A DNA stretch of 64,000 nt from a virus (IMGVR_UViG_3300032167_007519); one strand, 5' to 3'. Counted from the first letter of the stretch, positions 1,882 to 55,286 are shown. Notes: a model not told the origin generated them from the letters alone. Numbers and translations are program-made.

Positions 1882-3072
1882 TTACCAAAGATTTGCATAC
1901 GGAGTAACAGCTCTGATAGAATCTCTTACTTCTTCATCATATGGTAAAATAGTTCTAATATCATAGAAATCTTTACGTTTGGAAATAACCATGACTAATT
2001 CTGGAGTCTGATTGATATCTACATTGACATGTAGTGGCAGAACCCAATGTAATTCATCTTCTTTTGCTTTATAAATTGCTTTTGCATAAGAACCACCACA
2101 ACGATGAATACTAAGACCTGTATCTAATTCCTGAGAAATCTTTCTGGCTAATTCGAAATCAGAAATTTCTGCAATATTTTCCGGAAATCTTTCTCTTCTG
2201 GAATCAACACAATGACTTAAACTCTGATAGCTTGCATCATACAATTTTGGATTTGTGGAGAATGATGCAAAACGGTTATCTAATAAAGAAATTGGTTTCA
2301 ATTCTTTTGCTGCATCTTCCATAGTAAAACCATGTTCTGTGTAAGTTGTTTTACTTAAAATGATTTTGAACGGATAATAACAGTTATCTGTAACATGATA
2401 ACGATACATAACATGGAGATATCCGCCAAATCGATTTAATAAACCAATGTTAATTACTACCGATTTAATATTATTGACAACATAGTAATCTGTCATCTTG
2501 TTGTTGACATAGTACTTAATTTGATTGCTTAAGATTAACAAATATCTACGAAGACCGTTTGGAGATTCCCAATTATTTAATAATAACAACTCTTTTAACT
2601 GTTCGGCTATATCTCCAGCATCACGAACTTGTACAGATTCGTTCGAAGTATTTTCACTTACTGGCAACTCATCTAAACAGTTATCTTTATATTTTCTTAA
2701 AAAATTAAAACCATTTAACTGGAATTCTTCCTTATTTGCTTCGAAATCCGAGTTTCTTAAGATAAGATAACTGCCTTCTGCGACAAAATGACCTTCAAAT
2801 ACGCCAAAATGTTTCATCAAACATAAGAAAACAGGCTTTCCGTTGCTATTATTACACTTTAAATCAATCCACGCATATTTTGCGTCTTTTTTAGTTACTC
2901 GTTTGCACTTATTATCAAAATAATAAATATCTGTTTCGTTATTTTTTATTTTTTCTGCTAATTGAGCAAGGTCACACTCCATTCCAGTAAACTGGGAATA
3001 AAATTTTTCAAACTGTTCGACTCCGGTTAGTAATAAATCATCGCTTAATTGGAAATCAGATTCATATGCCAT
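1882..3072 (-). CDS. Hypothetical protein (396 aa)
   Basis: Long minus-strand ORF with an RBS. Promoter motif upstream at 3189-3212 and a terminator hairpin downstream at 1814-1842. Confidence 0.55.
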   Translation of the reverse strand: MAYESDFQLSDDLLLTGVEQFEKFYSQFTGMECDLAQLAEKIKNNETDIYYFDNKCKRVTKKDAKYAWIDLKCNNSNGKPVFLCLMKHFGVFEGHFVAEGSYLILRNSDFEANKEEFQLNGFNFLRKYKDNCLDELPVSENTSNESVQVRDAGDIAEQLKELLLLNNWESPNGLRRYLLILSNQIKYYVNNKMTDYYVVNNIKSVVINIGLLNRFGGYLHVMYRYHVTDNCYYPFKIILSKTTYTEHGFTMEDAAKELKPISLLDNRFASFSTNPKLYDASYQSLSHCVDSRRERFPENIAEISDFELARKISQELDTGLSIHRCGGSYAKAIYKAKEDELHWVLPLHVNVDINQTPELVMVISKRKDFYDIRTILPYDEEVRDSIRAVTPYANLW

Positions 3073-3188
3073 ATTTTATTTTTCCTTTCTTATCAACAAA
3101 CAACAATTTTTTTGACTTATAAAAAACTATCTTAATCCAATGGAATCCCCTCCTTTTTTTTGTTTAGAACAACAAATATAAGGTACGT

Positions 3189-3212
3189 CTATTAGCTATT
3201 TTTTGGTTTAAG
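3189..3212 (-). promoter_or_regulatory. Motif copy 2
   Basis: ctattagctattttttggtttaag + atggcgg. Confidence 0.6.
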
Positions 3213-3225
3213 ATGGCGGGAATCC

Positions 3226-4275
3226 TTAACGAACGAGGTGTATAGATTTATCAACGGTTTCTTTTTTACGACGAAGCTCTGCTTTTCCAACTTCTCGGAT
3301 TAAAATATATCTCATAATACGGTCATCACAATTTGCAATTTCTTTTAAACAAGGACGAATTGTTTGATATAACATACGCTTCATTTCTCTACAACCAAAT
3401 TCAGATTTGGCTAAAATCGCAAATTGAACACAGGCTTCCTTTGTAGATTTTAAAAGTATATCTTGTTCTTTTCCCAGTTCTTCTAAAGTTTTTAAATACA
3501 ATCCTTGAAAAGCTTTGTCATCAATGACATGAAAGTTATAAAGAGAATCAAAACGACCAACTAGTTCTACAGCTCCTCCAACAGATACGAGGTCTCTCAT
3601 AGACATATCATAAAATTCTAAGGATTGAGATGTTGTAGCAGAAAATCCAAGAGTTTTTTCTGGAGTCATTTTCTGTTTGCGAAAATCGGTAAATGCTCCC
3701 ATACCTATAAATAATGTTTTATTGGTATCTACCATTTTTGCTAAATTTGGCTTTGTGGATGATTGACATTCTTTACCTTCTAAAAGAGAAAGCATTTCGT
3801 GCTGAAGAGCGCTATGAAAATTCTCATTGCCACTACTGGATAATGGCAATAAAATCTTGTCAAATTCATCAAGAAAAACAATTGCATAGCCAAGAGAACC
3901 TTGTGCAGCAATACGCTCTGGAATAGAAGATAGTCCAGTTCCTACAAACCCAGCAGGTGAAAATCCGGAAATATCAACATGTAATACAGGAATTGGACAA
4001 TTATATTGTTTTAATATTTTTTTTACAGTACGATATAATTCTGTTTTTCCGGAAGCCGATGGTCCAGAAATCATAATGTTGTGTTTAATACATTTTCCAG
4101 AAAAACTTCCAGAAATATATTGATAAATATCATAAGCAATATCAGAGATTGCTTCATCTTGTCCATAAACAGAATTTTGAATATCCCAAACAAATTGTTC
4201 ATAAGAAATTGGGAAATCATAAGGTTCATTTTCATCAAAAAGGTCGTCATTAAAAAAGTCATGGATATATGTCAT
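3226..4275 (-). CDS. ClpX/HslU-like AAA+ ATPase (unfoldase-like). No N-terminal zinc-binding domain seen.
   Basis: VYGQDEAISDIAYDIY resembles the ClpX VIGQEQAKK..AVYNHY region. Walker A is ISGPSASGKTEL and Walker B is IVFLDEFDKI. SGFSPAGFVGTGLSSI resembles ClpX TEAGYVGEDVENI. Confidence 0.7.
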   Translation of the reverse strand: MTYIHDFFNDDLFDENEPYDFPISYEQFVWDIQNSVYGQDEAISDIAYDIYQYISGSFSGKCIKHNIMISGPSASGKTELYRTVKKILKQYNCPIPVLHVDISGFSPAGFVGTGLSSIPERIAAQGSLGYAIVFLDEFDKILLPLSSSGNENFHSALQHEMLSLLEGKECQSSTKPNLAKMVDTNKTLFIGMGAFTDFRKQKMTPEKTLGFSATTSQSLEFYDMSMRDLVSVGGAVELVGRFDSLYNFHVIDDKAFQGLYLKTLEELGKEQDILLKSTKEACVQFAILAKSEFGCREMKRMLYQTIRPCLKEIANCDDRIMRYILIREVGKAELRRKKETVDKSIHLVR

Positions 4276-4347
4276 ACTACTACCTCCTGAAATGATTCAG
4301 ACAGGATTTGTTATAACATAAATATATAATTTTTCTAAATTGTAGCC

Positions 4348-4530
4348 TTATGTTATAACAACATCTTCGTCGTCAAAAAACATAGTATCAGTGTCGTCAC
4401 TTGGATAATATTTTTCTTCTCCTACATGACAACATTCCAGAGTTCCATCTTTTTCAATATTTACAACAGAAACTTTTACAAAAATAATATCTCCAACCTT
4501 AATATTCGCTGTGTTCTGCATGGGAACCAA
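4348..4530 (-). CDS. Hypothetical small protein (60 aa)
   Basis: ORF with RBS GGAGG and promoter motif 4607-4631 upstream. Confidence 0.4.
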   Translation of the reverse strand: MVPMQNTANIKVGDIIFVKVSVVNIEKDGTLECCHVGEEKYYPSDDTDTMFFDDEDVVIT

Positions 4531-4606
4531 CCTCCTTTTTCGTATGTAACATAGAATTTTTATAAAATTCTTTATAATTATTTATAACTCTTTATAGTTC
4601 TTTCTA

Positions 4607-4631
4607 CTTATTAGCTAATGTTTGGTTTAAG
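4607..4631 (-). promoter_or_regulatory. Motif copy 3
   Basis: cttattagctaatgtttggtttaag + ttgtcgg. Followed in the transcript by TATAAATAATTATAA. Confidence 0.6.
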
Positions 4632-4640
4632 TTGTCGGAA

Positions 4641-4676
4641 ACACACAAGAAAAGAGCCTCGGGAACTCCGGGGCTC
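4641..4676 (-). terminator. Intrinsic terminator (minus strand) after gene 4686..5195
   Basis: GC-rich hairpin GAGCCTCGG-GAAC-TCCGGGGCTC, then UUUUCUUGUGUGUUU on the minus strand. Confidence 0.6.
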
Positions 4677-6089: not shown

Positions 6090-6758
6090 TTATCTTTGTA
6101 TAATTGGTATTTGTGCATTCTTTTCTAAAAGAGCTTCTTCAGCTTCTTCCGGAGTATAAAAGATAGTTTCTCCAAAGTCTTTGATAGGTAATTTTAAACT
6201 ACTATGTTTTGCTTTTAAAAATGTAGAGTTTTCTTCAATTACAATTTCAGAAACTGTAAACGGAATGACTTGGTAAGATTCATCAAAAGTTCCTTTATAT
6301 ACGCAATAAAGAGTGTCTCCTATATGGCAAGGCACAATGTAAGTCATAGGTTTTTTCCGGTCTCTGAGATATTCTAATCGTTCTAAAGCAGATTCGTGTG
6401 TAGAAAATAATTTATCCTTGCTAAAACGAAGAGGGATATCTTCCACACCATCTAAAGCAATCATCCATTCATTACCTTGTTTATAATATCTATCTATTGT
6501 ACATTCACGAATTTGCTCGTTATGCAAACAGTAAACTGTTTCGTGCATATGAAATGGAAATTTTGGAAGAAGTTCTTGTTTTTGCAAATCTCTTAAAAGA
6601 GCAGCTTCTGGTTTTATCGCTTGAAGATGATAAGTATTACTTCTCATATTTTTTGCAAAAGCTCTTAATTGCTGTTCGTTATCAAAATTTGTCTGGAACA
6701 TTGTTTCAGAATCCCAAACTTCATTCCAAATTCGAGTCATTTCTTCTACTGTAAGCAT
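6090..6758 (-). CDS. Hypothetical protein (222 aa)
   Basis: Tiling minus-strand ORF, tightly spaced. Confidence 0.5.
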   Translation of the reverse strand: MLTVEEMTRIWNEVWDSETMFQTNFDNEQQLRAFAKNMRSNTYHLQAIKPEAALLRDLQKQELLPKFPFHMHETVYCLHNEQIRECTIDRYYKQGNEWMIALDGVEDIPLRFSKDKLFSTHESALERLEYLRDRKKPMTYIVPCHIGDTLYCVYKGTFDESYQVIPFTVSEIVIEENSTFLKAKHSSLKLPIKDFGETIFYTPEEAEEALLEKNAQIPIIQR

Positions 6759-8136: not shown

Positions 8137-8547
8137 TTACATTGTCATTGTTTTCTTTTGAAACTCATATTCGGAACACTCTAAACCATGTTCTCGTATC
8201 CAATCAGCAACTAATTGTCTATGACAAAAATCTGTGGGTTTTTCGTAACAAATAAGAGCAATGTCTTTTCCGCCAGAAAGGTTCATTAACTCTTCTATTG
8301 TTTGATTAAAATCTAAAACACCTAAAACCTGTTCCTGAAAACATTTGTCATAGTGCTCTGCATCGCCATCTTCTTTATATTTTGCAAAAAAGCTATATTT
8401 TGGAGCTAGTTTTTTATATTGGATACCCGTATACCAAGCCGGAGCTTTGCCACAAATAGAAATAGGGACAATATCTTCCGGTAAGTCTTTTAATTTTGCA
8501 AAATAACTTGTATAAAATGACACGTTTTTTGTAGAATCTTTTATCAT
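8137..8547 (-). CDS. Hypothetical protein (136 aa). It has an FCHR motif; a DUF488-like assignment is possible but uncertain.
   Basis: ORF. The motif is ICYEKPTDFCHRQLVADWI. Confidence 0.45.
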   Translation of the reverse strand: MIKDSTKNVSFYTSYFAKLKDLPEDIVPISICGKAPAWYTGIQYKKLAPKYSFFAKYKEDGDAEHYDKCFQEQVLGVLDFNQTIEELMNLSGGKDIALICYEKPTDFCHRQLVADWIREHGLECSEYEFQKKTMTM

Positions 8548-46554: not shown

Positions 46555-49461
46555 TTAATTATAATTAGTCTTCATGCGAATTGCTTTATTCACATTGGAT
46601 AAAGTAATCAGATAGCTTGGACCATCTGTAGAATGTCCATCATATGGAACTCGTAATACTAAATCCTTAATGGTAACATAATTATTCTTTACAGAATAGG
46701 TTACATCTTCAATCATATTCGCTGAGAAATCTAACCATTCACTGCCTTGATAGCTGAAACGGAAGGTTTCGGCTACAACTGCCTTAGCATCAGATACACT
46801 ACTTACAATAATTTCTGTTAAAGAGCTCTTTACTCCTTGGAACATTACATCAGTAGATGCATTCTGGATAGTAAATGTGGTTGTCTTCTTTGCGGTATTT
46901 ACTGTAATTCCATCGTTCTTGGTGATGTAGGTAGCCTTTACAGTATATGTACCGTTACTTAATACGTTCATAGCTCCAGATTCATCCATTGTAGAAGCAA
47001 GTACCTGAATTCTACCATTGAAAATGGTTAAACTGGAACCACTTGCGGTAGCACTGGAAAGAACTTTTCCGTTTGGTCCGGTGATAGTTACATATACATC
47101 ACCTTCGGAACAGTTATTTACAGTGTACTTCTGGTTGGAATTGTTGGAAAGATATACATTAGAATCCTGTACACCAACCTTAACATTTCCACTTGTTCTA
47201 AATACGTCTACAAAGAAACTCTGTGGACCACTTGTGTAACTTAAGGTTAAATCATGAACCTTGGATTCTCCTAAAGACCAACCATCAACAACAATTAAAT
47301 TGTCTCTTACTATTGGATTCTTTACAGTTACATTTACTCTTGCTGTCTTACCGGAAATCAATTCGGTAATTAAGAACTGAACACTGCTTCTGTTTGTGTA
47401 AGAACGGATGGCAGCACCATTTACAACAAGAGTGTTTCCAATCATGTATGCTGGAGAACCAGAACCTCCACGTAAACCTTCTTGAACTTCCTGTGTAGTA
47501 CAACTGATTTCGTATTCACAATCTCCGGTCCAAAGCTTACCATACTGGTCTAATGGGAAAACTTTAACCGTATCAACACATACAATGCTTTCCATATTGT
47601 TGATAGCTGTACTGGAAACATAAAGATTGTTGGAAGAAGTAGTAAGCTGATTTACCTGAGATGGAGTTAATACTTTAATGGAAATGGTGCCAATATTCTT
47701 TTCAGCACCTTCAATATCTAAGTACTGTACTCTGGTTGGGATAGAGCCTGCTCTATCAAAAGCATAAACTTCTCCATAAGCACCAACATAATAATTGGAA
47801 TTTGTAGAAGCAACATAGTTAATCTGACCACCATAATATGCATATGGAGCCTTATAATCATTTAAACTATAAATTTCTCTTGCAGTATTGATACCACGGT
47901 CATCACTTGTGTATGTATAACCATAGTTATCTGTAATCAATACAACTAACTGATATGCTTTTTCTGTACCAGCAACAACTTCATGAACTGGTTTATCCCA
48001 GTTAATCGTTGCGGTAGAATCAGTCTTAACTAATGTCCATTCCTTAATGCCTGTTACTCGGTATGGTGCATGTTCAATAGAACGAATTACAGTGACTGGA
48101 CTTACTAATTCCTTTGTTTCTCCGGCAGTATTCCAATAGGTAAAGGTTGCTTTTACAGTCGCTACCTTATTGGCTTCGTAGAATAATAAGGAATTTTCAT
48201 TAAATACTACATCAGGAGAACTATCGCCAACTAGTTCATAGGAAATGTAGCCATACATACAATAGGTATTTGTTACATCAACACCATCTGCATATAAACG
48301 ATAGTCTAACTCAGTTTCAGAATCTTCTGTGTAATAACTATAGTTCATTGCATAAGCTTTACCCTGTTCTCCTAAAGAAGAATATACTACTTCTAAGCGG
48401 TCTGGTGTCGCAAAATCTGCTGTGATTTCTTCAAGATATTCATCTACAGTTACTTCATAAGTTCCACCAGTTACAAAAGTTTCAGTAGTAGTTAGGATAA
48501 CAGTCTGCGCATTTTTCTGTTCCATAGACTCTACAGTGTAAAAAACACCATCTTTGGATACTTTATATGCATTCTTATCATAATTTACAGCTTCCGGAAA
48601 CATAAGCTGTACCTTATTGTCGGCCACAAATACTAAATTCATTTCTGGCTTAGGGATTTCTGTTGGTTCTGGGTCTTCTACAGGTTCCTCTGGAAGGTTA
48701 GGATTTTCTACATCTTCTGGAGTTTCTGGGAGAACACTTACATAGCTGCCAACAGTAACTGTAGTTGGGAATACATTTAATTCCTTACCAGTTAATTTGT
48801 TTACAATGGAAAGATAAATGGTAGCAATACCTTCTTCTTTTGCAAAGAATAAACCATTATTTGCTACATAAAGAATATCTTCATTGTCTGTGAACCATGT
48901 ACACTTAAAGTTCTTTGCTTTGTAATTCTTAACGCCGTAGAAATTAAGGTCAACCATGTCTCCAACTTCTACTGTCATTTCTTCATACAAGTTATCTCTG
49001 GATGTACCAAGGTATACTGCAGTGGTATCTTCTTCTTCAAGTGTAGGTTCTTCTTTTGTCTCTACAATGACTGGTGCCTCATCTGTTACAGTTAAGGTAA
49101 CACCAGTAGAAGTATAAGCGCTGCCATTTCCGACATATACTTTAATGGTAGTCGTTCCAGTTTTCTTTGCTGTGATTACACCATCAGAATCTACTGTAGC
49201 AACTTTTTCATTACTACTAGTCCATAAAATAAGACTACTGTTCTTTGGCGTACCCTTTGTGTCCATGTCTTTGGTTTCACCTACGGTCATGGATAAATTA
49301 GTTACTTCTTTTCCATCAATTTCATAGGTGAATACGGTTCTGTTGTCTGCATAAACGGATGTCATTGGCATAGAAGTACATACCGTAACTGCAGCAACAA
49401 GTGCGGCAAATAATCTCGTAATCCGACTCATTGGATTATCCTCCTTTTTCTCGTTGTTCAT
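46555..49461 (-). CDS. Large secreted protein with Big_2 (bacterial Ig-like) domains. Start is possibly at the internal MSRITRLFAALVAAV signal peptide (~49431).
   Basis: VATVDSDGVITAKKTGTTTIKV is a Big_2 signature. Signal peptide present. 968 aa. Confidence 0.6.
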   Translation of the reverse strand: MNNEKKEDNPMSRITRLFAALVAAVTVCTSMPMTSVYADNRTVFTYEIDGKEVTNLSMTVGETKDMDTKGTPKNSSLILWTSSNEKVATVDSDGVITAKKTGTTTIKVYVGNGSAYTSTGVTLTVTDEAPVIVETKEEPTLEEEDTTAVYLGTSRDNLYEEMTVEVGDMVDLNFYGVKNYKAKNFKCTWFTDNEDILYVANNGLFFAKEEGIATIYLSIVNKLTGKELNVFPTTVTVGSYVSVLPETPEDVENPNLPEEPVEDPEPTEIPKPEMNLVFVADNKVQLMFPEAVNYDKNAYKVSKDGVFYTVESMEQKNAQTVILTTTETFVTGGTYEVTVDEYLEEITADFATPDRLEVVYSSLGEQGKAYAMNYSYYTEDSETELDYRLYADGVDVTNTYCMYGYISYELVGDSSPDVVFNENSLLFYEANKVATVKATFTYWNTAGETKELVSPVTVIRSIEHAPYRVTGIKEWTLVKTDSTATINWDKPVHEVVAGTEKAYQLVVLITDNYGYTYTSDDRGINTAREIYSLNDYKAPYAYYGGQINYVASTNSNYYVGAYGEVYAFDRAGSIPTRVQYLDIEGAEKNIGTISIKVLTPSQVNQLTTSSNNLYVSSTAINNMESIVCVDTVKVFPLDQYGKLWTGDCEYEISCTTQEVQEGLRGGSGSPAYMIGNTLVVNGAAIRSYTNRSSVQFLITELISGKTARVNVTVKNPIVRDNLIVVDGWSLGESKVHDLTLSYTSGPQSFFVDVFRTSGNVKVGVQDSNVYLSNNSNQKYTVNNCSEGDVYVTITGPNGKVLSSATASGSSLTIFNGRIQVLASTMDESGAMNVLSNGTYTVKATYITKNDGITVNTAKKTTTFTIQNASTDVMFQGVKSSLTEIIVSSVSDAKAVVAETFRFSYQGSEWLDFSANMIEDVTYSVKNNYVTIKDLVLRVPYDGHSTDGPSYLITLSNVNKAIRMKTNYN

Positions 49462-49540
49462 TTTTCAAGGTGCATTTTTTGTTTTTCTCATTCTTATTCG
49501 GAGTTTTTTAGGATGTGACATAATAAAAATGATAAAACAA

Positions 49541-49630
49541 CGACAATGGTAGGATTCGAACCTACGGACCTCTTTCGAGAGTCAACGGTTTTCAAGACCG
49601 CCGCAATAAACCAGACTCTGCCACATTGCC
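49541..49630 (-). tRNA. tRNA-Ser (anticodon TGA), class II with long variable arm
   Basis: Reverse complement folds as GGCAATG/CATTGTC acceptor, 3-bp D-stem, anticodon loop CTTGAAA, variable arm, T-arm GTAGG-TTCGAAT-CCTAC. Very similar to E. coli tRNA-Ser. Confidence 0.85.
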
Positions 49631-49727
49631 ACATATACTTTTCCTATAGCCTTTCTAAAAGGCTAAGAAATTTAACCCTTTAGAAAAAACTACAGGATGA
49701 GGAAGAATGATAAAGTTTTTATTCACA

Positions 49728-49751
49728 CTTATTAGCTACTAATTGGTTTAA
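49728..49751 (-). promoter_or_regulatory. Motif copy 14, upstream of tRNA-Ser
   Basis: cttattagctactaattggtttaat + ctttcgg. Confidence 0.55.
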
Positions 49752-49840
49752 TCTTTCGGTAATAAATGACATTTAGGCTTATTTTGCCAGATAATCAAAA
49801 CTTTTTTAGTTGCTTTAATAAACATTCTTTTTTTTAAGTT

Positions 49841-49885
49841 AAAAAAACTCAGAGACATAGGAATAAATATATTTTCATCTCTGAG
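49841..49885 (-). terminator. Hairpin with U7 tract (minus strand) between the tRNA-like elements and the tRNA-Ser promoter
   Basis: CTCAGAGA..TCTCTGAG 8-bp stem with a 22-nt loop, then UUUUUUU. Confidence 0.4.
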
Positions 49886-50002
49886 ACATGGAGGTTAGAA
49901 AACCTAAAAAATGTTTAGTTTTATAATAGAGCTTCTAATTCTTTTATTTCAGCTCTTAATTCTCTCACTTCTTTTAAAAGAAGTTTTTTTTGCTTTAAAG
50001 AT

Positions 50003-50116
50003 TACGGGAGAGAGGATTCGAACCTCTCATATAATGAATCCTGACCATATGATTATTTCTAATCACAGATTCCCATGGAGAATGAGTCCATGCACTTACC
50101 AACCGTGAACTCCCAT
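50003..50116 (-). ncRNA. tRNA-like RNA with CAT anticodon-like loop and a ~47-nt structured extra arm (GAAA-tetraloop hairpin)
   Basis: Acceptor ATGGGAG/CTCCCGT, D-arm CAC..GTG, anticodon stem ATGGA/TCCAT with loop CTCATTC, T-arm AGAGG-TTCGAAT-CCTCT. The extra arm is GAATC..TGATTA-GAAA-TAATCA..GATTC. Confidence 0.45.
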
Positions 50117-50189
50117 AACTAACTTTTTGGTCGAAAGAACAAGAAAATCAAAATAACTACCAACGCTTTTGGAAGGAAACGTTGAGAAC

Positions 50190-50245
50190 CCAAATGCTTC
50201 CTAAGGGAATCGAACCCTTTTTTATGCCAATTAGGAAGCAGATAG
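50190..50245 (-). ncRNA. tRNA minihelix-like element (acceptor stem plus T-arm only)
   Basis: GCTTCCT ... AAGGG-TTCGATT-CCCTT AGGAAGC: a 7-bp terminal stem directly flanking a T-arm. Confidence 0.35.
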
Positions 50246-50329
50246 ATAGGACCATTTTCGTAGCCCTATCTTTAGAAAGGAAGATAACATTTTGTAGAGA
50301 AAAGCAAATTTGAGAATAACCCTACAAAA

Positions 50330-50503
50330 GAGAGGTGGCGGATTTGAACCGCCAATTAGTTCCTATCAGATGTAACAAACTGTTTACCTAAGGAGAAAAA
50401 TTTATGTCTACCCTGCCCAAAGAGTATACATGATAAGTCAAATACACAACACACTGGAGAAAAATAGATAGGACTAATTACCGTTTTCGTTATAAAAACG
50501 AAA
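50330..50503 (-). ncRNA. Structured RNA candidate with a tRNA-like T-arm, a long internal helix and a terminal stem (Y-RNA-like?)
   Basis: 3' end GGCGG-TTCAAAT-CCGCC then ACCTCTC pairs with GAGAGGA at the 5' end. Internal 13-bp helix AATTAGTCCTATC/GATAGGAACTAATT. Hairpin CGTTTTTATAACGAAAACG. Confidence 0.3.
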
Positions 50504-50830
50504 TTCCTCTCAAATAGTAAAGATGAGGAATGAGAAGTTTAAAAATGGATGAAGAGACTCCTCACTCCTTACCTTTTACTTACTTCGATTGGCATATCGG
50601 ACCAGTTTCGAAGAGTGCTTGCATTGCCGAAGCCCACAAGCGATGAAACTCTTACGTTGACGATATTTTAATAAGAGAATCATCTCATCCAATCTAATAG
50701 ACAAATTGCTGTTTGTTTCCCTATTGCGGATTGGTGTGTGAGATGGAGGCCGCTTTGTACAGGAAACATTAGGGGGCTCTGTTATGGACTTATTGCATAT
50801 TGATTTATGACTAATTGCCATATCCCTAGT

Positions 50831-50956
50831 AGAGAAGGTCGGGCTCGAACCGACGACAACCAGCTTGGACTTAATTTTTTCCTTGCTGTTAGTTTCACAC
50901 GTACATATGAAACATTTTTATAAGGGCTGATGCTCTCCCATCTGAGCTACTTCTCT
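50831..50956 (-). ncRNA. tRNA-like gene with a ~53-nt insertion in the anticodon loop (intron-like, contains hairpin GTTTCA..TGAAAC)
   Basis: Acceptor AGAGAAG/CTTCTCT, canonical D-arm TAGCTCAGATGGGAGAGC, T-arm GTCGG-TTCGAGC-CCGAC. Anticodon stem TCAGC/GCTGG encloses 60 nt in place of 7. Confidence 0.5.
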
Positions 50957-51021
50957 ATTTTTTATTAGAACATAGTGAGGAAGAAGGCCTACCTATTGGT
51001 TAGATAGGCCTTTTGTTCCTA

Positions 51022-52497
51022 TTATGCTACTACCTTTTCGTAACGCTCACTGTTGACTACTGCCATCATGAGCTCGTAAGGTGTGGTTCCAATGTTCTCC
51101 ATTACCTGCTTAAAGATGTTTGGACTATATCCACTTACCATAGATACGCCTCTTGCACTCTTAGCAGCATGGAAGGTTGGATTCTTTGCGTTGACATTCC
51201 AGAATACTACCTGTGGAAGATGATATCCTGCTTCGTTATAACGCTTTTTCATAACATCGTAAAATGTCATGTTCTGCTCACGGTCAACACCCTCTACACA
51301 GTTAATCTGCATATCAGATACAATGACAATAGCATCTGGCATTTCTTCTGGAGTTACCTTACCCTTAATACAGGTCTTAAGTAATAACTCAAAAGCCGCT
51401 TCAAGGTCGGTAGAACCATCCCAATCAGCTTCCTTTACGATATTAAGATTATCCTTTAATGTAGCACCGTTAAGCTCTACATATTCCGGATGAGTGCTGA
51501 AAGTCATGAATACATCCTTTAAGTCACCCTTGTTTCTCTGAGCAAAATAAATTGCTAGAGCTGTAGCGACTTCAATTGGATACATACCTCCAGACTTATC
51601 CCAGCTCATAGAACCGGAAGTGTCACACATGACTAAAGCATTTCCCTTACATACATCCGGAAGAGACTTCCACATGGTTTCAAGGTCTCTGGTATAGTTG
51701 GTATTTACCTGATGAATAATGTCACATGGAGTAACAGTACCCATGTTCATCTTCTCTTCACCAGTTTCTACCTTCTGATTGAATTCTGTCCAACGAGCTT
51801 CATCATGCTTTACAAAAGCCTTACGGTTCTTAAGTAAAAACTTAGATGCACACTTGCTGTACTCAATCTCGTCCCACTTACCAGCACACATCTTTGCTTC
51901 CGGTAAATCTAAATACTTACGAAGAGAACGGAGCTTCTTTTTATAGTCAGACATGGTCTTGAAGGAATAACCTAACTTCTTGGCAGTTAACTTACCAAGC
52001 TTCTTTGTTTCTTCAGAACCAGAGTCCGGTGTAGCAATCCACTTAGCCAATAAAGAAATACTATTTCCCTTTGCTAAGTTCTCTAAGTCTAACTCAAACT
52101 GAGCCTTCATAAACTGCCACATTGCAGATTCTGCAGGAGTTCCAATCAAACAATATAAGTCCTTGGCACGACCAAATTCTAATACTGCCCAAAGGTTCTT
52201 CTCTACAGATGCTGGATTGATTTCAGCTAAATGACGGAACATATCCATAAAGGTATCTCTTTCTCCATATCCGCCACGAATGTCTCGGGTATAGAATAAT
52301 AACTTTACGGCAATATCCTTGTTTTCCTGAAAAGCTCTGCTAAATAACAGGTTCTTTTCTTCTGTAGTAGCCTGTCTCATTGCTCCGGCTCTACCAAATA
52401 AGTCTAGACAGGTGGAATCTGTGGTCTTTAAGGTATCACAACCATTCCATGTTTCTGTCCACTTTGCTTCGTTGTGAATAGCTTCACGTAAACTCAT
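51022..52497 (-). CDS. DUF2828-family protein: N-terminal TROVE/Ro60-like region plus C-terminal vWA domain
   Basis: vWA MIDAS VMCDTSGSMSW...DGSTD. Domain order and size (491 aa) match the phage DUF2828 family. The TROVE relationship is from memory, not a search. Confidence 0.55.
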   Translation of the reverse strand: MSLREAIHNEAKWTETWNGCDTLKTTDSTCLDLFGRAGAMRQATTEEKNLLFSRAFQENKDIAVKLLFYTRDIRGGYGERDTFMDMFRHLAEINPASVEKNLWAVLEFGRAKDLYCLIGTPAESAMWQFMKAQFELDLENLAKGNSISLLAKWIATPDSGSEETKKLGKLTAKKLGYSFKTMSDYKKKLRSLRKYLDLPEAKMCAGKWDEIEYSKCASKFLLKNRKAFVKHDEARWTEFNQKVETGEEKMNMGTVTPCDIIHQVNTNYTRDLETMWKSLPDVCKGNALVMCDTSGSMSWDKSGGMYPIEVATALAIYFAQRNKGDLKDVFMTFSTHPEYVELNGATLKDNLNIVKEADWDGSTDLEAAFELLLKTCIKGKVTPEEMPDAIVIVSDMQINCVEGVDREQNMTFYDVMKKRYNEAGYHLPQVVFWNVNAKNPTFHAAKSARGVSMVSGYSPNIFKQVMENIGTTPYELMMAVVNSERYEKVVA

Positions 52498-52597
52498 AAT
52501 AAAATCCTCCTTACATGATTCGTAAAATAATTTTGTAAAATTTGCGATTTACAGTTCTGTTTTAAGATTTGCTGTAAGAATCACAAGATGGATTAGT

Positions 52598-52620
52598 CCC
52601 TACATAAGTAGGGGTTTTTT
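52598..52620 (+). terminator. Plus-strand terminator-like hairpin upstream of the TROVE-like gene
   Basis: CCCTAC-ATAA-GTAGGG GTTTTTT. Confidence 0.4.
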
Positions 52621-53014
52621 ATTAACTTATTGCTTGTTCTGTTATAGAACAAATGCTGAATTATAGTGATGAGCTATCGGCATTGAAACTAACTTTAAAT
52701 TTGTAGTATTCTAGTCATCGTCATGACCTGCCGTCTATGTCAAATTACTTTCTAAAGCTTATGCACACTTAGCTAAAGATTTTATTTTATAGAAATTCAG
52801 CAAAATATTTGTTTGTTCTGTTCAGAGGAGCCTCTTCCTTCCTTACTCCCTAGCTGCACCTCTCCGGGATAGGATACCTTTTCGCAGACTCCTCTGCCAG
52901 TGCAACATGCTTGATGTGCAGTCAAAGACTATTGTTGCAATATGTACTGGTTTCTAACCAATAGCCCACCACTCTGTTCCTAAATAATTTGTTTACAGAG
53001 AACCATAAAAATTA

Positions 53015-53242
53015 TTATAAAACTTCAAAAATATCAAAAAGTATTTCTGAAGATATAATACTGTTTGGCGCAATTTCTTTTCTAGTTCCTAAATTACGTA
53101 GTTTGTTTAGATATCCTGAACATTGCTGGCAACAAAAGAAAGTATTCTTACCTTTTCTTTTTTTTCTATTATATTCGGATATTGATTTCTCAAACTTTTT
53201 GTTACATTCTGGATTAAAACAAGTTAATGTTATTGTATTCAT
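53015..53242 (-). CDS. Small zinc-ribbon protein (75 aa)
   Basis: CFNPEC...CCQQCSGY. The only credible ORF in this part of the ncRNA-rich region. Confidence 0.4.
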   Translation of the reverse strand: MNTITLTCFNPECNKKFEKSISEYNRKKRKGKNTFFCCQQCSGYLNKLRNLGTRKEIAPNSIISSEILFDIFEVL

Positions 53243-53677
53243 AAATACCTTAATTCAAAATAATATAGGATGAGATAATGAGTGGACCTGAGGAGAGTCG
53301 AACTCCTGTCTGGAACACCGCCATAAAACTTTCTACACGTTTATCTTATTTTTGGTACCAGCCGATGTTTAAATAAGCAAACCCATCGACATCGCACAGC
53401 CAGATTTTATTTTGATATGGCTTTCTGGGTGAACTTTTACCGTATCTCAACCGCTATTTTTGAACCCTCCGGAGTATAGCGGTGTTATCCGGAGAGCTTA
53501 TCCCTTACCATTTCAGATAAGGGTGTAGTCTACTTACCTATTAGGCAGCCTGAGCTACTGGTCTGTATGCGTTAGCATTTATTCTTTGGTGTCGGATTTA
53601 AGAGGTGTCCACCATCCTCTACGTGCTTATTTTCCTTTGTATGCCCCATCGAAACCGGGACAGGCCCAAATGTTTTT

Positions 53678-54145
53678 TTATTTGCGTTTTACGCGCGATT
53701 TTTTTAAATATTGACCCGTAAGTTTTCCATTCTTTACGAGTACTTTATGTATGTCACTTTCTACAATTTTACGCTCTTCGTCTAACAAATGAAAAGAATA
53801 TATGCCACACCTGTTTTTTAAATATTGATAAACTTCTTCTTGGGACCAGCAAAGTTTACGTAAAAAATCAATATTTTCGGGTGCTCGTTGTTGAGCTTCT
53901 CTTGATGCGAGGCCTATATTATTATTATATCTTGGTTTAAGCTTTAACCTAATTGCTATATCAAGGTCATGTATTTTTTCATTATCTGTGTTTATATATG
54001 AACCAAAAGCAACCATTTCGTCTACAAAACACGTAAACTCCGGATGTGATATTTCTTCATTAAGCTGCGAGATTCTTTCCAATAGTTCATTCAATTTTTT
54101 TTCTACTGTTTTTCTTTTGTATAACTTAGATTTACTCTCTGCCAT
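53678..54145 (-). CDS. Minimal nucleotidyltransferase (Pol-beta superfamily)
   Basis: AFGSYINTDNEKIHDLDIAI fits the GS-x(9-13)-DhD nucleotidyltransferase motif. Confidence 0.55.
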   Translation of the reverse strand: MAESKSKLYKRKTVEKKLNELLERISQLNEEISHPEFTCFVDEMVAFGSYINTDNEKIHDLDIAIRLKLKPRYNNNIGLASREAQQRAPENIDFLRKLCWSQEEVYQYLKNRCGIYSFHLLDEERKIVESDIHKVLVKNGKLTGQYLKKSRVKRK

Positions 54146-55214
54146 TGTAATTTCCTTTTTTTATGTTTTGTAAAACGTGAATTTAGATTAAAGTAGGGCT
54201 ATTTATTGTCATCTAGGTTGCCACCCTAAAATGTTTCTTACTCTCGGTCTTTCGTTCATATCTTTGATGCCCATCGGTTTCCTCTCAGATACACACATTT
54301 CAAACCTCATTGTGGATTCCTTATTTTCCGTAAGTTTTTTAGCGATACCGAACTTACAACACAAATACCAGTCACTAACGCTCTTTTAATTACCCTTTTG
54401 GGATAATTACCGTCTTTTCTTCGACGGACCTCGAATGGTTTATGCAAGAACCAATAAGCCTCTGTGTTTTGACATATCACAGAAGAAATATTCTCCTTTC
54501 GGATAGGTGGCTATAGGGGAATCGAACCCCATCATTGATATATTTAGCTCTCCACTTTTACACTACCGTCGTGTGGTCAGACTCGAACTGATTCCGGTGG
54601 TAAATATATCCCCGCTGGCAACCATCACTTCATAAGCAATTTTTAGGAATTACTATCAGTACAAGACTGTCAAACATCTGTCGCTGAACGAGCTCTTTTT
54701 TCAGAAATCTAAGCAGGTGGAATTTCCCCACAATGCATACTTAAATGATGTTCTTTACGTGGCCAGTTAGCCATATTTTGTTTTTTTACATAAAAATAAA
54801 ATCCTTAACTTACATGAAACGCTTTTTTTTTGAAGATTTTTCATAAAATTTTTCTTTTTCAAGTAGCAGAATTGCTGTATGTTTTACATTAAGAATTTTT
54901 TGACAATAGCTCAAATTTGGCTTTGTACATGTACGCTGCCAATAAAAAACTCTATCGGTTTTTGTTCGGTTGTTATCTTTATACAGGAAACTTTTTTTCT
55001 TCAACCCATTTGAATATGTAGTAGATTTGCTGTATGTTTCCCTAAAGATTGTTAGTTTACTTTTTACATGATGCTTTTTTGTTTGATTGCAAGAAGCAGG
55101 ACGCCTCTAATTGAATAATATGTTTTAGAATAGTTAATTCAAATTTTGCATTTTAGTTTTGCTGTAAGCATCACAAGTAACTATGTTAAATTATATTGGC
55201 TTTGACAGCCAAAG

Positions 55215-55286
55215 AGCACGTAACGAGAATCGAACTCGCATCTTCTGCTTGGAAGGCAGACATCTTAACCATTGGACCATACATGC
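55215..55286 (-). tRNA. tRNA-Gly (anticodon TCC)
   Basis: Acceptor GCATGTA/TACGTGC, anticodon stem TCTGC/GCAGA with loop CTTCCAA, T-arm GCGAG-TTCGATT-CTCGT. Confidence 0.85.

Follow-up and report, generated by a model that had tools for sequence, protein, structure and literature searches.

The 64,000-nucleotide stretch of DNA of a large gut phage analyzed here (IMGVR_UViG_3300032167_007519; hereafter, the window) encodes a DUF2828/DUF7788 protein with a predicted Ro60-type fold, and the gene is surrounded by six copies of a short RNA element that accompanies this gene family in phages of many hosts. We consider it fairly probable that the protein and these RNAs form a Y-RNA-like ribonucleoprotein (RNP) of a divergent Ro family, in which the element is the cognate ligand and the protein probably regulates its own synthesis. 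The element consists of a helix of 7-9 bp with single-stranded (N)CAGCAA 0-2 nt beyond its 3'-proximal strand and ..UG-U after the other strand. An open unit is a stem-loop RNA of 60-130 nt, the two ends of which pair to form the helix; a closed unit has a loop-capped helix and is attached to the anticodon arm of a tRNA-shaped scaffold. All six units of the window carry ACAGCAA, lie on the gene strand (minus) within 2.7 kb of the gene, and are distributed as follows: three upstream, one in the mRNA leader, and two downstream.

55064-55175, minus strand: U1, open form, UGUGAUGCUU-ACAGCAA-82 nt-AAGCAUCAUG-UAA
54981-55042, minus strand: U2, open form, GGGAAAC-AU-ACAGCAA-35 nt-GUUUCCU-GUAU
54813-54888, minus strand: U3, open degenerate form, UGUAAAAC-AU-ACAGCAA-51 nt-GUUUCAUG-UAAG
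52514-52585, minus strand: U4, open form, in the mRNA leader, UGUGAUUC-UU-ACAGCAA-47 nt-GAAUCAUG
51022-52497, minus strand: gene of the DUF2828/DUF7788 protein, 491 aa, with an N-terminal helical domain and a C-terminal vWA domain with a complete MIDAS
50830-50956, minus strand: tRNA-shaped RNA with full acceptor, D, and T arms and with U5 in the anticodon-loop position
50883-50913, minus strand: U5, closed form, in the tRNA-shaped RNA, GUUUCAUAU-GUAC-GUGUGAAAC-UA-ACAGCAA
50706-50768, minus strand: U6, closed form with a 39-nt loop, UGUUUCCU...GGGAAACA-A-ACAGCAA

An earlier, sequence-only reading of this DNA had assigned the 491-aa product of the 51022-52497 ORF, which is indeed present, to DUF2828 with a C-terminal vWA domain, and this layout holds. 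The Pfam profiles of DUF7788 (PF25043; 145 bits, 2.6e-42, cut-off 27.1) and DUF2828 (PF11443; 109.9 bits, 1.7e-31, cut-off 29) match above their curated cut-offs, VWA_2 matches weakly, and PHROG 850 ('RNA-binding protein') matches residues 7-487 (5.2e-122), so that the assignment covers the full length of the protein. There are 2891 homologs at E<=1e-10, and the MIDAS residues D292-x-S294-x-S296, T363, and D395, which reproduce the DxSxS...T...D pattern of the Ro60 vWA domain, are invariant in 50 of them. A remote TROVE match had been expected from Pfam as well; however, no match to TROVE (PF05731) was found at E<=1, and neither phmmer nor a 50-homolog profile retrieved any Ro60 from the PDB sequences at E<=10, so that membership in the TROVE family by sequence was rejected. 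Because sequence methods fail to connect the protein with TROVE, the homology with Ro60 rests on predicted structure. When an AF2 model (pLDDT 92.4) was searched with Foldseek, all 13 matches at E<=0.001 were Ro60/TROVE entries, the Ro60 of phage phiLo among them, and a HEAT-like helical ring domain followed by the vWA domain matched Ro60 structures over the whole chain. Thus, the TROVE-like fold on which the sequence-only reading depended is recovered by structure prediction, and the protein, as modeled, has a divergent Ro60-type fold, a helical ring closed by the vWA/MIDAS domain.

DUF2828 proteins are encoded in 693 of about 50,700 phage records, including model and biocontrol phages (Felix O1-like, Listeria A511/P100-like, Staphylococcus, Campylobacter, and Enterococcus phages); the window protein is 28-45% identical to the homologs from phage isolates and up to 82% identical to metagenomic relatives. 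So far, the function of the family is represented by a Ro-like annotation ('Ro-like RNA binding protein' in actinobacteriophages, mycobacteriophages among them) and a single anti-defense report, according to which gp130 of the Felixounavirus Bas63, a Ro60-like protein that is probably a DUF2828/DUF7788 (PHROG 850) member, counters the Ppl defense system (PhageMaP preprint, PMC11482910). This 2024 preprint also speculates that some of the tRNA genes adjoining Bas63 gp130 might be Y RNAs (PMC11482910), which is the only literature we found on Y-RNA partners of DUF2828 proteins. In contrast to that idea, our candidates are not annotated tRNAs but CAGCAA stem-loops encoded in the spacers and, in gut and cyano phages, also module-bearing tRNA bodies.

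Five of the six units (50706-50768, 52514-52585, 54813-54888, 54981-55042, and 55064-55175, all minus) had been overlooked by the sequence-only reading, which placed its RNAs downstream of the gene; this placement is incomplete, given the units upstream and in the leader. U1, just downstream of tRNA-Gly, has 9-bp arms with the UGUG/CAUG signature. With covariance model R1, the RNA that contains U5 (50830-50956) scores 40.2 bits (E 5e-8) and U2 scores 16.6 bits. Two units score poorly, namely, U6 (12.5 bits), because of its long loop, and U3 (10.8 bits), the weakest of the six, which has one A.C mismatch in the helix and a possible alternative AU-rich pairing. The scaffold of U6 (about 50680-50822, 5' start GGCAAUUAGUC) is not a tRNA and resembles scaffolds in the loci L010 (7836-7970), L011, and L015.

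In an alignment of 24 sequences, the hairpin of the element is 100% paired, with compensatory changes at four pairs (for example, GUUUCA/UGAAAC, CGGUCA/UGACCG, AGACUCA/UGAGUCU, and GCCGAUCA/UGGUCGGU); the apical C-G, A-U, and U.G pairs and six of the seven bases of AC(A/G/U)GCAA are invariant. The covariation score is 0.356 compared to 0.154 in shuffles, none of 500 of which reached it, and slid controls gave at most 0.168. No Rfam family matches the motif.

The element is tightly linked to the gene. Across 17 diverse DUF2828 loci, the proteins of which are 28-41% identical to that of the window, there are 26 strict ACAGCAA units on the gene strand within 600 nt and none on the opposite strand, against a mean of 0.93 and a maximum of 5 in 200 shuffles. 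The helix with (N)CAGCAA lies beside the gene, on the gene strand, in 16 of the 17 lineages: E. coli phage wV8, Listeria phage LMSP-25, Mycobacterium phages Lumos and Enceladus, Bacillus phage Thrax3, Enterococcus phage VRE9_3, Staphylococcus phage S-CoN_Ph5, Campylobacter phage F207, Fusobacterium phage phiKSUM, Vibrio phage 6E35-1b, Sinorhizobium phage phiM12, Synechococcus phage B23, and the metagenomic loci L006, L008, L016, and L043. The one exception is Aeromonas phage Ah1, with no unit within 4 kb. In close relatives, with proteins 75-82% identical, 2-6 copies immediately follow the gene, and wV8 has no more than three strict units in its first 45 kb, all of them directly downstream of the gene. 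Conversely, in a metagenome scan seeded with the RNA pattern alone and counting matches with at least 2 kb on both sides, a same-strand DUF2828 gene was found within 2 kb of 28 of the 29 signature matches and near none of the 13 matches without the signature; many of the metagenome loci come from one human-gut lineage and are not independent. The gene of the window, like its homologs, lies within a tRNA island or adjacent to one (examples are wV8, which belongs to Felixounavirus as does Bas63, and the Listeria, Bacillus, Enterococcus, and Campylobacter phages), and RtcB, the CCA-adding enzyme, or phosphoesterases are encoded nearby in several lineages.

Given that this signature lies beside one gene family in phages of many hosts and has no Rfam match, the RNAs are probably partners of the DUF2828 protein, and the linkage suggests direct contact between the two. 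The coupling of structured RNAs, including tRNA mimics, to the gene that the sequence-only reading proposed is thus borne out, but its carrier is the previously missed helix with (N)CAGCAA. An ordinary phage tRNA island, in which degenerate tRNA pseudogenes happen to lie beside an unrelated vWA protein, might be invoked instead, considering that pseudo-tRNAs are common in such islands ('tRNA-OTHER' in wV8 and LMSP-25) and that three further tRNA-like structures of the window (see below) lack comparative support. This reading is hardly credible and is effectively refuted by the covariation of the motif arms, the unit count (26, compared with none on the opposite strand and about 0.9 for shuffled sequences), the 28 of 29 well-flanked matches in the unbiased scan, and the full-length match of the protein to Ro60.

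The 3' arm of U4 stops 1 nt before the Shine-Dalgarno (SD) sequence UAAGGAGG of the gene, the ATG of which is at 52497. Counterparts of U4 abut the SD at the same position in the relatives L005, L010, and L011, with compensatory changes in the arms (UGUGAUACU / AGUAUCAUG). Coordinate arithmetic places the end of a unit 11-45 nt ahead of the start codon or ribosome-binding site in the Campylobacter, Sinorhizobium, Fusobacterium, and Enterococcus phages, and in the Vibrio phage, a unit spans the start codon. With an open unit in the gene's own leader and its 3' arm touching the SD, autorepression of translation is probable: Ro-like protein in excess over its RNA partners would bind the leader unit and repress its own translation.

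The constant presence of one unit near the ribosome-binding site or start codon, and the location of the wV8 units in inter-tRNA spacers, where processing signals are expected, also would fit a motif that acts in cis only, be it as a leader element or operator, as a site of RNase processing, or as a stabilizer; it would serve the transcription unit in which DUF2828 and the tRNAs happen to lie and would be read by a host factor or another phage factor, not by the DUF2828 protein. However, the motif travels with the gene in phages of Firmicutes, Actinobacteria, Proteobacteria, Campylobacterota, Fusobacteria, and Cyanobacteria, which makes a host-specific factor unlikely, and, in the same genomes, it is absent from tRNA islands away from the gene, such as the window tRNAs at 55.2-58 kb. 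Tandem copies, downstream copies, and copies on tRNA-like or YrlA-like bodies are better compatible with a trans-acting RNP partner, and so is, in comparison with a processing site, the covariation of the arms around a fixed CAGCAA. We therefore regard a purely cis-acting signal as quite improbable.

The insert-bearing tRNA-like gene that the sequence-only reading recognized at 50830-50956 is confirmed: the Rfam tRNA model (RF00005) matches it at 47 bits, above the gathering score of 29, and locates an insert of 60 nt at the position of the anticodon loop; ARAGORN made no call there. The acceptor, D, and T arms of the cloverleaf are all present, and U8, A14, G18 G19, the G15:C48 pair, and the T-loop UUCGA are visible. 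The insert is the conserved module, that is, a hairpin with covarying arms followed by single-stranded ACAGCAA, and counterparts of the RNA lie downstream of the gene in L005, L010, L011, and L013. No 7-nt anticodon loop that combines U33 with a purine at 37 is formed, either directly or after removal of one insert: exhaustive excision together with a manual check yielded no canonical U33 loop, and manual enumeration put C or G at position 33 in all loop splits.

The closed modules alternatively could be small, protein-dependent phage tRNA introns of a new kind, with the Ro-like protein, as an RNA chaperone or platform, recognizing the intron and aiding its splicing or maturation, and the open units as decoys, regulators, or remnants. 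Indeed, like in intron-containing tRNA genes, the inserts of 45-80 nt are located in or near the anticodon arm, and 5 of the 17 tRNA-embedded modules regain canonical anticodon arms upon excision (Ile-GAU, Thr-UGU, Thr-CGU, Thr-GGU, and one with a UGA anticodon), which suggests introns rather than permanent Y-like RNAs. Specifically, L008 4272-4395 without the insert is a tRNA-Ile(GAU) with the loop CUGAUAA, and L008 4497-4612 gains the loop CUUGAAA; L010 and L011 contain tRNA-Thr(UGU) and tRNA-Thr(CGU) with covarying anticodon stems; and L043 2137-2252 gives Thr(GGU). The site of insertion is not fixed (about 26/27, 28/29, 29/30, and 33/34), as in archaeal non-canonical introns, an A-rich/U-rich helix P1 joins the two exon ends, and Listeria phage LMSP-25 encodes RtcB at a distance of 1.3 kb from the gene. 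Conserved 'enigmatic' tRNA introns have been described in Lak megaphages (Devoto et al. 2019), which similarly involve large gut phages and some otherwise canonical tRNAs.

However, in the window copy and most of its lineage, no excision yields a 7-nt loop with U33; the loops that remain after excision (CC-UCC-AA, CAUCCAA, AGGACAA, and the 6-nt AUGUCA) drift between orthologs, and many scaffolds, including that in the window, have no usable anticodon loop. Unlike tRNA introns, the insert motif also occurs in non-tRNA scaffolds, free-standing stem-loops, and the mRNA leader, and tracks a single protein gene. Unlike archaeal and bacterial tRNA introns, the modules show neither bulge-helix-bulge (BHB) geometry, the strands flanking P1 being 1-2 nt versus 5-16 nt, not the 3/3 of BHB, nor a group I core; the module regions match no Rfam family except tRNA, with no group I intron or small ribozyme, and the exon-intron junction nucleotides are not conserved. 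A Pfam search of 21 window ORFs identified no splicing endonuclease or RNA ligase. Altogether, we consider an intron origin unlikely, and its stricter version, in which the modules are true introns of a new protein-dependent class, with the DUF2828 protein recognizing helix-CAGCAA as a platform for excision and religation and the free-standing and leader units titrating or regulating it, is less probable again. If that version were correct, this would be the first bacterial or phage tRNA splicing system that is neither group I nor archaeal-type, and Ro-family proteins would be tied directly to the splicing and repair of tRNAs.

Among the four RNAs of the sequence-only reading, both comparative support and the motif were found only for 50830-50956. 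The remaining three are:

50328-50514 (originally 50330-50503), minus strand: element ii, tRNA-shaped RNA with a ~100-nt multibranch insert behind a 13-bp helix
50190-50245, minus strand: element iii, acceptor/T-arm minihelix; Rfam tRNA 25.1 bits, E 0.043, below the gathering score
50003-50116, minus strand: element iv, Type-II-like tRNA-shaped RNA with a long extra arm; Rfam tRNA-Sec 22 bits, E 0.5

The CAGCAA motif is absent from all three. Element ii folds into an acceptor stem, a T arm, and the 13-bp 'anticodon-position' helix (MFE -49.6 kcal/mol; z -3.77; 0 of 200 shuffles fold equally well), and no homolog was found in the fetched relatives. The fold z-scores of elements iii and iv are -2.6 and -1.95, respectively; the loop of element iv, CUCAUUC, has U rather than a purine at position 37, and ARAGORN did not call this RNA. 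These are plausible folds without comparative support and only candidate members of the module.

Under the Y-RNA-like RNP model that we favor, the helix with (N)CAGCAA would be the cognate RNA ligand of the DUF2828 protein, carried by several small RNAs around the gene in parallel to Ro60 and Y RNAs. Judging from Ro60/Y RNA/PNPase and the rsr-yrlA-rtcBA operon as analogs, the probable targets of the RNP would be tRNAs or other structured RNAs, on which it would act in quality control, in repair, or in protection from host defenses that attack RNA or tRNA, and the tRNA-shaped scaffolds might supply processing, stability, or recruitment of tRNA enzymes. A conserved candidate ligand, a 60-130-nt RNA with a 6-7-nt invariant motif, makes the Ro-like annotation testable. 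If the binding is real, these phages represent a second, far more widespread phage branch of Ro-Y RNA biology with a different recognition code; unannotated spacers of phage tRNA islands, along with at least one probable mis-annotated ORF, would be explained, a probable translational operator would be identified, and Rfam would gain a new family.

The closest known system comprises Ro60 (TROVE2/Rsr) and Y RNAs, including bacterial Rsr-YrlA/YrlB and phage Ro60-Yrl (Chen et al. 2014, PMC4201824; Thermus phage phiLo, PMC12135203). Canonical phage Ro60 binds Y-like RNAs that are encoded beside its own gene and combine a 5'-3' stem with a conserved CGAA in an internal loop (PMC12135203; PMC4201824). 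The shared features include two to six small structured RNAs on the same strand within about 3 kb, a 5'/3' terminal stem, a short conserved single-stranded motif on the 5' side of a large internal loop, tRNA-like domains joined at the anticodon-stem position, and a neighborhood of RNA-repair and tRNA genes; the six units of the window reproduce the Y-RNA layout (same strand, ~4 kb, paralogous copies, terminal stem, internal loop, and, optionally, a tRNA-like domain), and so do the units in 16 of the 17 lineages. The differences, besides the lack of a sequence-level TROVE match, are a helical domain of about 280 residues versus about 360 in Ro60, the closed tRNA-embedded (un-permuted) topology, the copy in the gene's own leader, and a motif, (N)CAGCAA by a helix ending UGUG/CAUG, that is distinct from every known Ro-binding motif (GGUCCGA, GNCGAA, or CGAA). 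Of the Y-RNA-like neighborhood envisaged by the sequence-only reading, the same-strand structured RNAs by a Ro-like gene stand, but the canonical features do not: the Y_RNA (RF00019) and YrlA (RF02553) models that it had suggested gave no match at E<=10 in 49400-53300 or at E<=1 in 53650-58200, and neither of the signatures GGUCCGA and GNCGAA matches in the window. In Mycobacterium phage Lumos, however, three units stand in tandem, and inside the middle one, 130 nt past the 'Ro-like' gene, YrlA matches a permuted tRNA-like domain (39.3 bits, E 1.8e-5, below the gathering score of 69). The tRNA-embedded form in the window is thus a circular permutation of this arrangement, and if the protein binds the element, the tRNA-plus-protein-handle design exists in both circular permutations.

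The minus-strand ORF 51022-52497 encodes a 491-aa protein with Pfam matches to DUF7788 (2.6e-42) and DUF2828 (1.7e-31), both far above the cut-offs, a weak match to VWA_2, and a match to PHROG 850, 'RNA-binding protein', that spans the whole protein (5e-122). With tblastn, 693 phage records proved to encode a full-length relative; Felixounavirus, Listeria Pecentumvirus, Mycobacterium cluster-L-type, Campylobacter, Vibrio, Bacillus, Staphylococcus, and Enterococcus phages are among them. The MIDAS residues (D292, S294, S296, T363, and D395) are invariant in 50 homologs. Neither Pfam nor phmmer and profile searches against PDB sequences reached Ro60/TROVE from the protein sequence. Because structure comparison does reach Ro60, the sequence-only reading, which had described a DUF2828 protein with a TROVE-like region and a vWA domain, proved correct: with the AlphaFold2 model (pLDDT 92.4, pTM 0.89) as the query, all 13 Foldseek matches at E<=0.001 are Ro60/TROVE entries (1yvr, E 1.3e-9, TM 0.62), Ro60 of the Thermus phage phiLo (2025) among them. 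The window protein is a DUF2828 member with a predicted Ro60 fold and, by sequence, not a TROVE member. On Ro60 itself, Y RNA occupies the outer surface.

Annotations already treat DUF2828 proteins as Ro-like ('Ro-like RNA binding protein' for several phage relatives); a full-text literature search for 'DUF2828' retrieved unrelated papers only, and an earlier mention in reviews is possible. The association of Ro60 with Y RNAs, phage examples included, is established (PMC4201824, PMC12135203), and gp130 of phage Bas63 is reported to resemble Ro60, to lie upstream of tRNA genes that are 'possibly Y RNAs', and to counter the Ppl defence (preprint, PMC11482910). Described here is a divergent Ro-family protein with a putative, previously unannotated RNA recognition element of its own.

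The exact window protein recurs in the metagenomes, on 13 contigs that reach up to 165 kb in length. Contigs of 0.27-0.72 Mb encode relatives at 62-82% identity, together with ClpP, a Clp-type ATPase, and a CCA-adding enzyme, and therefore the source of the window is a large or huge gut phage; one relative at 79% identity carries the label of a Lachnospiraceae MAG. The search for related loci in IMG/VR with protein and alignment queries gave only 5 usable loci; far more was gained from the search for encoding contigs and from a scan with the pattern.

Among the RNAs named in the sequence-only reading, the insert-bearing tRNA-like gene at 50830-50956 (minus strand) was borne out: it matches Rfam tRNA with 47 bits, contains 60 extra nucleotides at the anticodon-loop position, and is not called by ARAGORN. 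Over-long 'tRNAs' of this kind, one to several per locus, lie just downstream of the gene in the related loci L005, L010, L011, and L013 (75-82% protein identity). When these are aligned, the bodies differ, and what they have in common is the insert, GUUUCAUG...UGUGAAAC-NN-ACAGCAA. The alignment on which covariation was measured, 24 sequences from several lineages, shows 100% pairing in the hairpin. Its basal pairs covary (GUUUCA/UGAAAC, CGGUCA/UGACCG, AGACUCA/UGAGUCU, UCGUCA/UGACGA, GCCGAUCA/UGGUCGGU), the apical pairs (C-G, A-U, U.G) do not vary, nor do six bases of the seven in AC(A/G/U)GCAA, and shuffled and slid controls are exceeded on all five measures. A further helix, P1, is often formed by pairing of an A-rich strand on the 5' side with a U-rich one on the 3' side, and NN-ACAGCAA is then a 9-nt bulge that separates P1 from the hairpin. 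R1, a covariance model of this closed module, scores 40 bits at 50875-50922 in the window and finds 2-6 copies in each of the relatives, all adjoining the gene; its E-values are rough, and many of the metagenomic loci in these comparisons represent one lineage.

The other three are candidate RNAs. The one at 50328-50514 is predicted to fold like a tRNA, with one long helix and a sizeable insert (z -3.77), and the minihelix (Rfam tRNA 25 bits, fold z -2.6) and the CAU-loop RNA (tRNA-Sec 22 bits, fold z -1.95) are weaker; blastn gave no matches to any of the three, or to the other spacers, in any fetched locus. The proposed check against Rfam Y_RNA and YrlA gave no match in the window (49400-53300 at E<=10, 53650-58200 at E<=1). 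Across the window and the related loci, at the gathering threshold and at E<=10, the Rfam matches were confined to tRNA and tmRNA and, below threshold, to GOLLD, ROOL, and YrlA, and no family covers the CAGCAA motif; nor was a description of it found in the literature searched ('ACAGCAA' with 'phage'; partial coverage of reviews).

A second arrangement of the module was noticed through a weak R1 match in a spacer of Listeria phage LMSP-25. Here and in mycobacteriophage Lumos, the same elements occur in permuted order, as three tandem units X-NN-ACAGCAA-(loop)-X'-GU, with arms that are perfectly complementary yet unlike between units (GGAAUC/GAUUCC, GAGAGC/GCUCUC, and GGAAGC/GCUUCC in the Listeria phage; GGACAC/GUGUCC, GGACCCC/GGGGUCC, and GGACGG/CCGUCC in Lumos). 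In the middle unit of Lumos, 130 nt after the 'Ro-like' gene, the loop consists of a T arm, a closed acceptor stem, and a D arm, a tRNA-like domain in permuted order, and this domain matches Rfam YrlA with 39.3 bits (E 1.8e-5), below the gathering score. Both forms have the same order on the inner side of the helix, namely a bulge with CAGCAA, a short helix, and a tRNA body joined at the anticodon-stem position, and the open and closed forms differ in which end is closed; therefore the window RNA 50830-50956 is a circular permutation of a YrlA-like RNA. Unlike these RNAs, canonical Y and YrlA RNAs have GGUCCGA or GNCGAA at the place equivalent to CAGCAA (PMC4201824), and the experimentally bound Yrl RNAs of phiLo, which adjoin the Ro60 gene, have CGAA in an internal loop between 5'-3' stems (PMC12135203).

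The window contains six units, all on the minus strand and all with the signature X'...C(A/C)UGUA:

55064-55175, minus strand: U1, open form
54981-55042, minus strand: U2, open form
54813-54888, minus strand: U3, open form with one mismatch, the weakest of the six
52514-52585, minus strand: U4, open form, in the leader of the Ro-like gene
50883-50913, minus strand: U5, closed form, in the tRNA-like RNA
50706-50768, minus strand: U6, closed form, in a non-tRNA scaffold common to L010, L011, and L015

Three further ACAGCAA matches with arms lack the signature and are located in coding sequence. The ACAGCAA at 51854-51860 (minus strand), inside the Ro-like gene, was rejected as a unit: it belongs to GAG UAC AGC AAG, which encodes a conserved E-Y-S-K, and is present in the DUF2828 coding sequences of L010 and L011 too. 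We judge it to be a coincidence because the arm signature is absent.

The linkage between the module and the gene was assessed without bias by scanning a metagenome collection with the RNA pattern alone and then seeking a DUF2828 protein in the returned DNA. Of 29 matches that carry the CAUG/UGUG signature and are flanked by 2 kb or more on each side, 28 have a same-strand DUF2828 gene within 2 kb, most of these positives representing one second human-gut lineage (~60% identity to L008, ~41% to the window protein); the other, chance-like matches have such a gene nearby in 0 of 13 cases. In this second lineage, the DUF2828 gene has two module-bearing tRNA-like genes on its upstream side, at distances of up to ~340 nt, and a third ~1.3 kb downstream of it. 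A heuristic finder (ACAGCAA with arms of at least 7 bp, both topologies) located units beside the DUF2828 gene, on the gene strand unless stated, in diverse phages:

wV8: three units, in tRNA spacers
Listeria LMSP-25: three units
Lumos: three units
Enceladus: two units
Bacillus Thrax3: three units
Enterococcus VRE9_3: one unit
Staphylococcus S-CoN_Ph5: three units
Campylobacter F207: two units
Fusobacterium phiKSUM: one unit
Vibrio 6E35-1b: one unit
Sinorhizobium phiM12: one to two units
Synechococcus B23 and related locus L006: variant core UCAGCAA, with an additional closed ACUGCAA module within a 110-nt 'tRNA-Undet' in B23 (220408-220517 of MN695335.1)
Related locus L016: closed module only, 1958-2001 (minus strand of the locus), with the DUF2828 gene at 3139-4662 (plus strand)

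L016, a distant relative (28% identity), is the sole opposite-strand case seen, with the module 1.2 kb from the gene; a T-arm-like hairpin follows this module. Aeromonas phage Ah1 is the sole lineage among those examined with no unit by the gene. Within 600 nt of the gene in 17 loci, 26 strict units are on the gene strand and 0 on the opposite strand, and 200 dinucleotide shuffles gave a mean of 0.93 and a maximum of 5 units for the same count. The first 45 kb of wV8 contain just three strict units, all after the DUF2828 gene. The third of these, AGACCGUU-U-ACAGCAA...AACGGUCU-GGU, is overlapped by gp048 (6353-6610 of locus L001), a hypothetical CDS on the opposite strand that may be a mis-annotated RNA gene; in Enterococcus VRE9_3, tiny ORFs upstream of the gene overlap a unit. 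The CAGCAA element occurs in three contexts, as a free stem-loop, in YrlA-like RNAs, and embedded in tRNAs or leaders. RNA binding by the Ro-like protein, and its function, are inferred.

The leader unit U4 ends, with its 3' arm (GAAUCAUG), one base ahead of UAAGGAGG, the ATG being at 52497. L005, L010, and L011 have a leader unit in the same position with compensatory changes in the arms (UGUGAUACU / AGUAUCAUG), preceded by a good TTGACA...TATAAT promoter. In the Campylobacter, Sinorhizobium, Fusobacterium, and Enterococcus phages, the coordinates place the end of a unit 11-45 nt ahead of the RBS or start codon, and in the Vibrio phage the start codon of the gene lies within the unit. Because leader units are located by the SD sequence and start codon, in a conserved position and with compensatory arms, we propose that the Ro-like protein could regulate its own translation through them.

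The reading that we rank first, and consider probable, is that these are Y-RNA-like partner RNAs of a divergent Ro protein. Ranked second, and rather unlikely, is that the embedded modules are tRNA introns. Conserved tRNA introns have been reported in Lak megaphages (Devoto et al. 2019), and removal of the insert yields a canonical tRNA in 5 of the 17 embedded cases, with insertion points at about 26/27, 28/29, and 29/30:

L008, 4272-4395: Ile(GAU)
L008, 4497-4612: tRNA with a UGA anticodon
L010, 8376-8520, and L011, about 8370-8512: Thr(UGU) and Thr(CGU)
L043, 2137-2252: Thr(GGU)

In these genes, the module interrupts the 5' strand of the anticodon stem or directly precedes it, which, to our knowledge, is an unusual position among bacterial and phage tRNA inserts. 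However, the window copy and most copies of its lineage give excision loops that lack U33 and drift between orthologs, and the CAGCAA motif is found outside tRNAs as well. Neither BHB geometry nor a group I core is present in the module regions, and no known ribozyme matches them; an archaeal BHB intron or a small ribozyme was rejected on the geometry, the lack of model matches, and the non-conserved junction nucleotides. Pfam searches with 21 window ORFs detected no RtcB, splicing endonuclease, or RNA ligase; the matches include a weak Pol-beta nucleotidyltransferase and an HNH endonuclease. Exhaustive in-silico excision scored by ARAGORN was too permissive on arbitrary excisions and informative only where canonical loops arose. 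The partner-RNA and intron readings are compatible, in that the protein could bind the module within pre-tRNAs.

All substantial ORFs of the window are on the minus strand, and 49.5-58 kb is an RNA island with seven ARAGORN tRNAs and one tmRNA. In a DNA similarity search of a 4.3-kb region against isolated phages, tRNA-Ser alone was matched, and promoter-like sites were not enriched in a scan for promoters and terminators. Within a 1.3-kb gene-free stretch (55290-56580), a match to GOLLD at 55448-55898 (minus strand; 76.1 bits, E 4.7e-19, gathering score 150) suggests a GOLLD-like large ornate RNA in the island shared with the Ro-like gene. In LMSP-25 (NC_024360.1), about 1 kb from the DUF2828 gene on its upstream side, 2449-3000 of locus L002 matches ROOL with 88.5 bits (E 8.7e-17; gathering score 99.1). 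Two 'giant ornate' RNA families thus occur within a few kb of DUF2828 genes, which may reflect just a common preference for phage tRNA islands.

Upstream of the Ro-like gene, at a distance of 0.8 kb, is the tmRNA (53282-53667, minus strand; Rfam 132.8 bits, tag ANAYRPVAQAA); the interval contains a 75-aa ORF (53015-53242, minus strand) that has two CxxC-like pairs and no Pfam match. A small ORF between the tmRNA and the upstream units (53678-54145, minus strand) has the weak Pol-beta-type nucleotidyltransferase matches (24 bits, below the cut-off), and the HNH endonuclease ORF (57258-57755, minus strand) lies within the tRNA island, as in wV8, Thrax3, and S-CoN_Ph5. The closest relatives encode a CCA-adding enzyme (PolyA_pol and tRNA_NucTran2_2; L010 11732-13114, L011 12454 onward, L013 9147-10529) 1.7-5 kb downstream of the Ro-like gene, accompanied in L010 and L011 by ClpP and the Clp-type ATPase; the window has a 968-aa surface-protein-like ORF at this position instead. 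Right after the stop codon of the Ro-like gene, at 50984-51015 (minus strand), there is a strong hairpin, AGGCCUAUCUAACCAAUAGGUAGGCCUU, without a U-tract, which may be a processing or stabilizing element between the mRNA and the first tRNA-like RNA; its one Rfam match is a weak one to RefA9 (27.8 bits).
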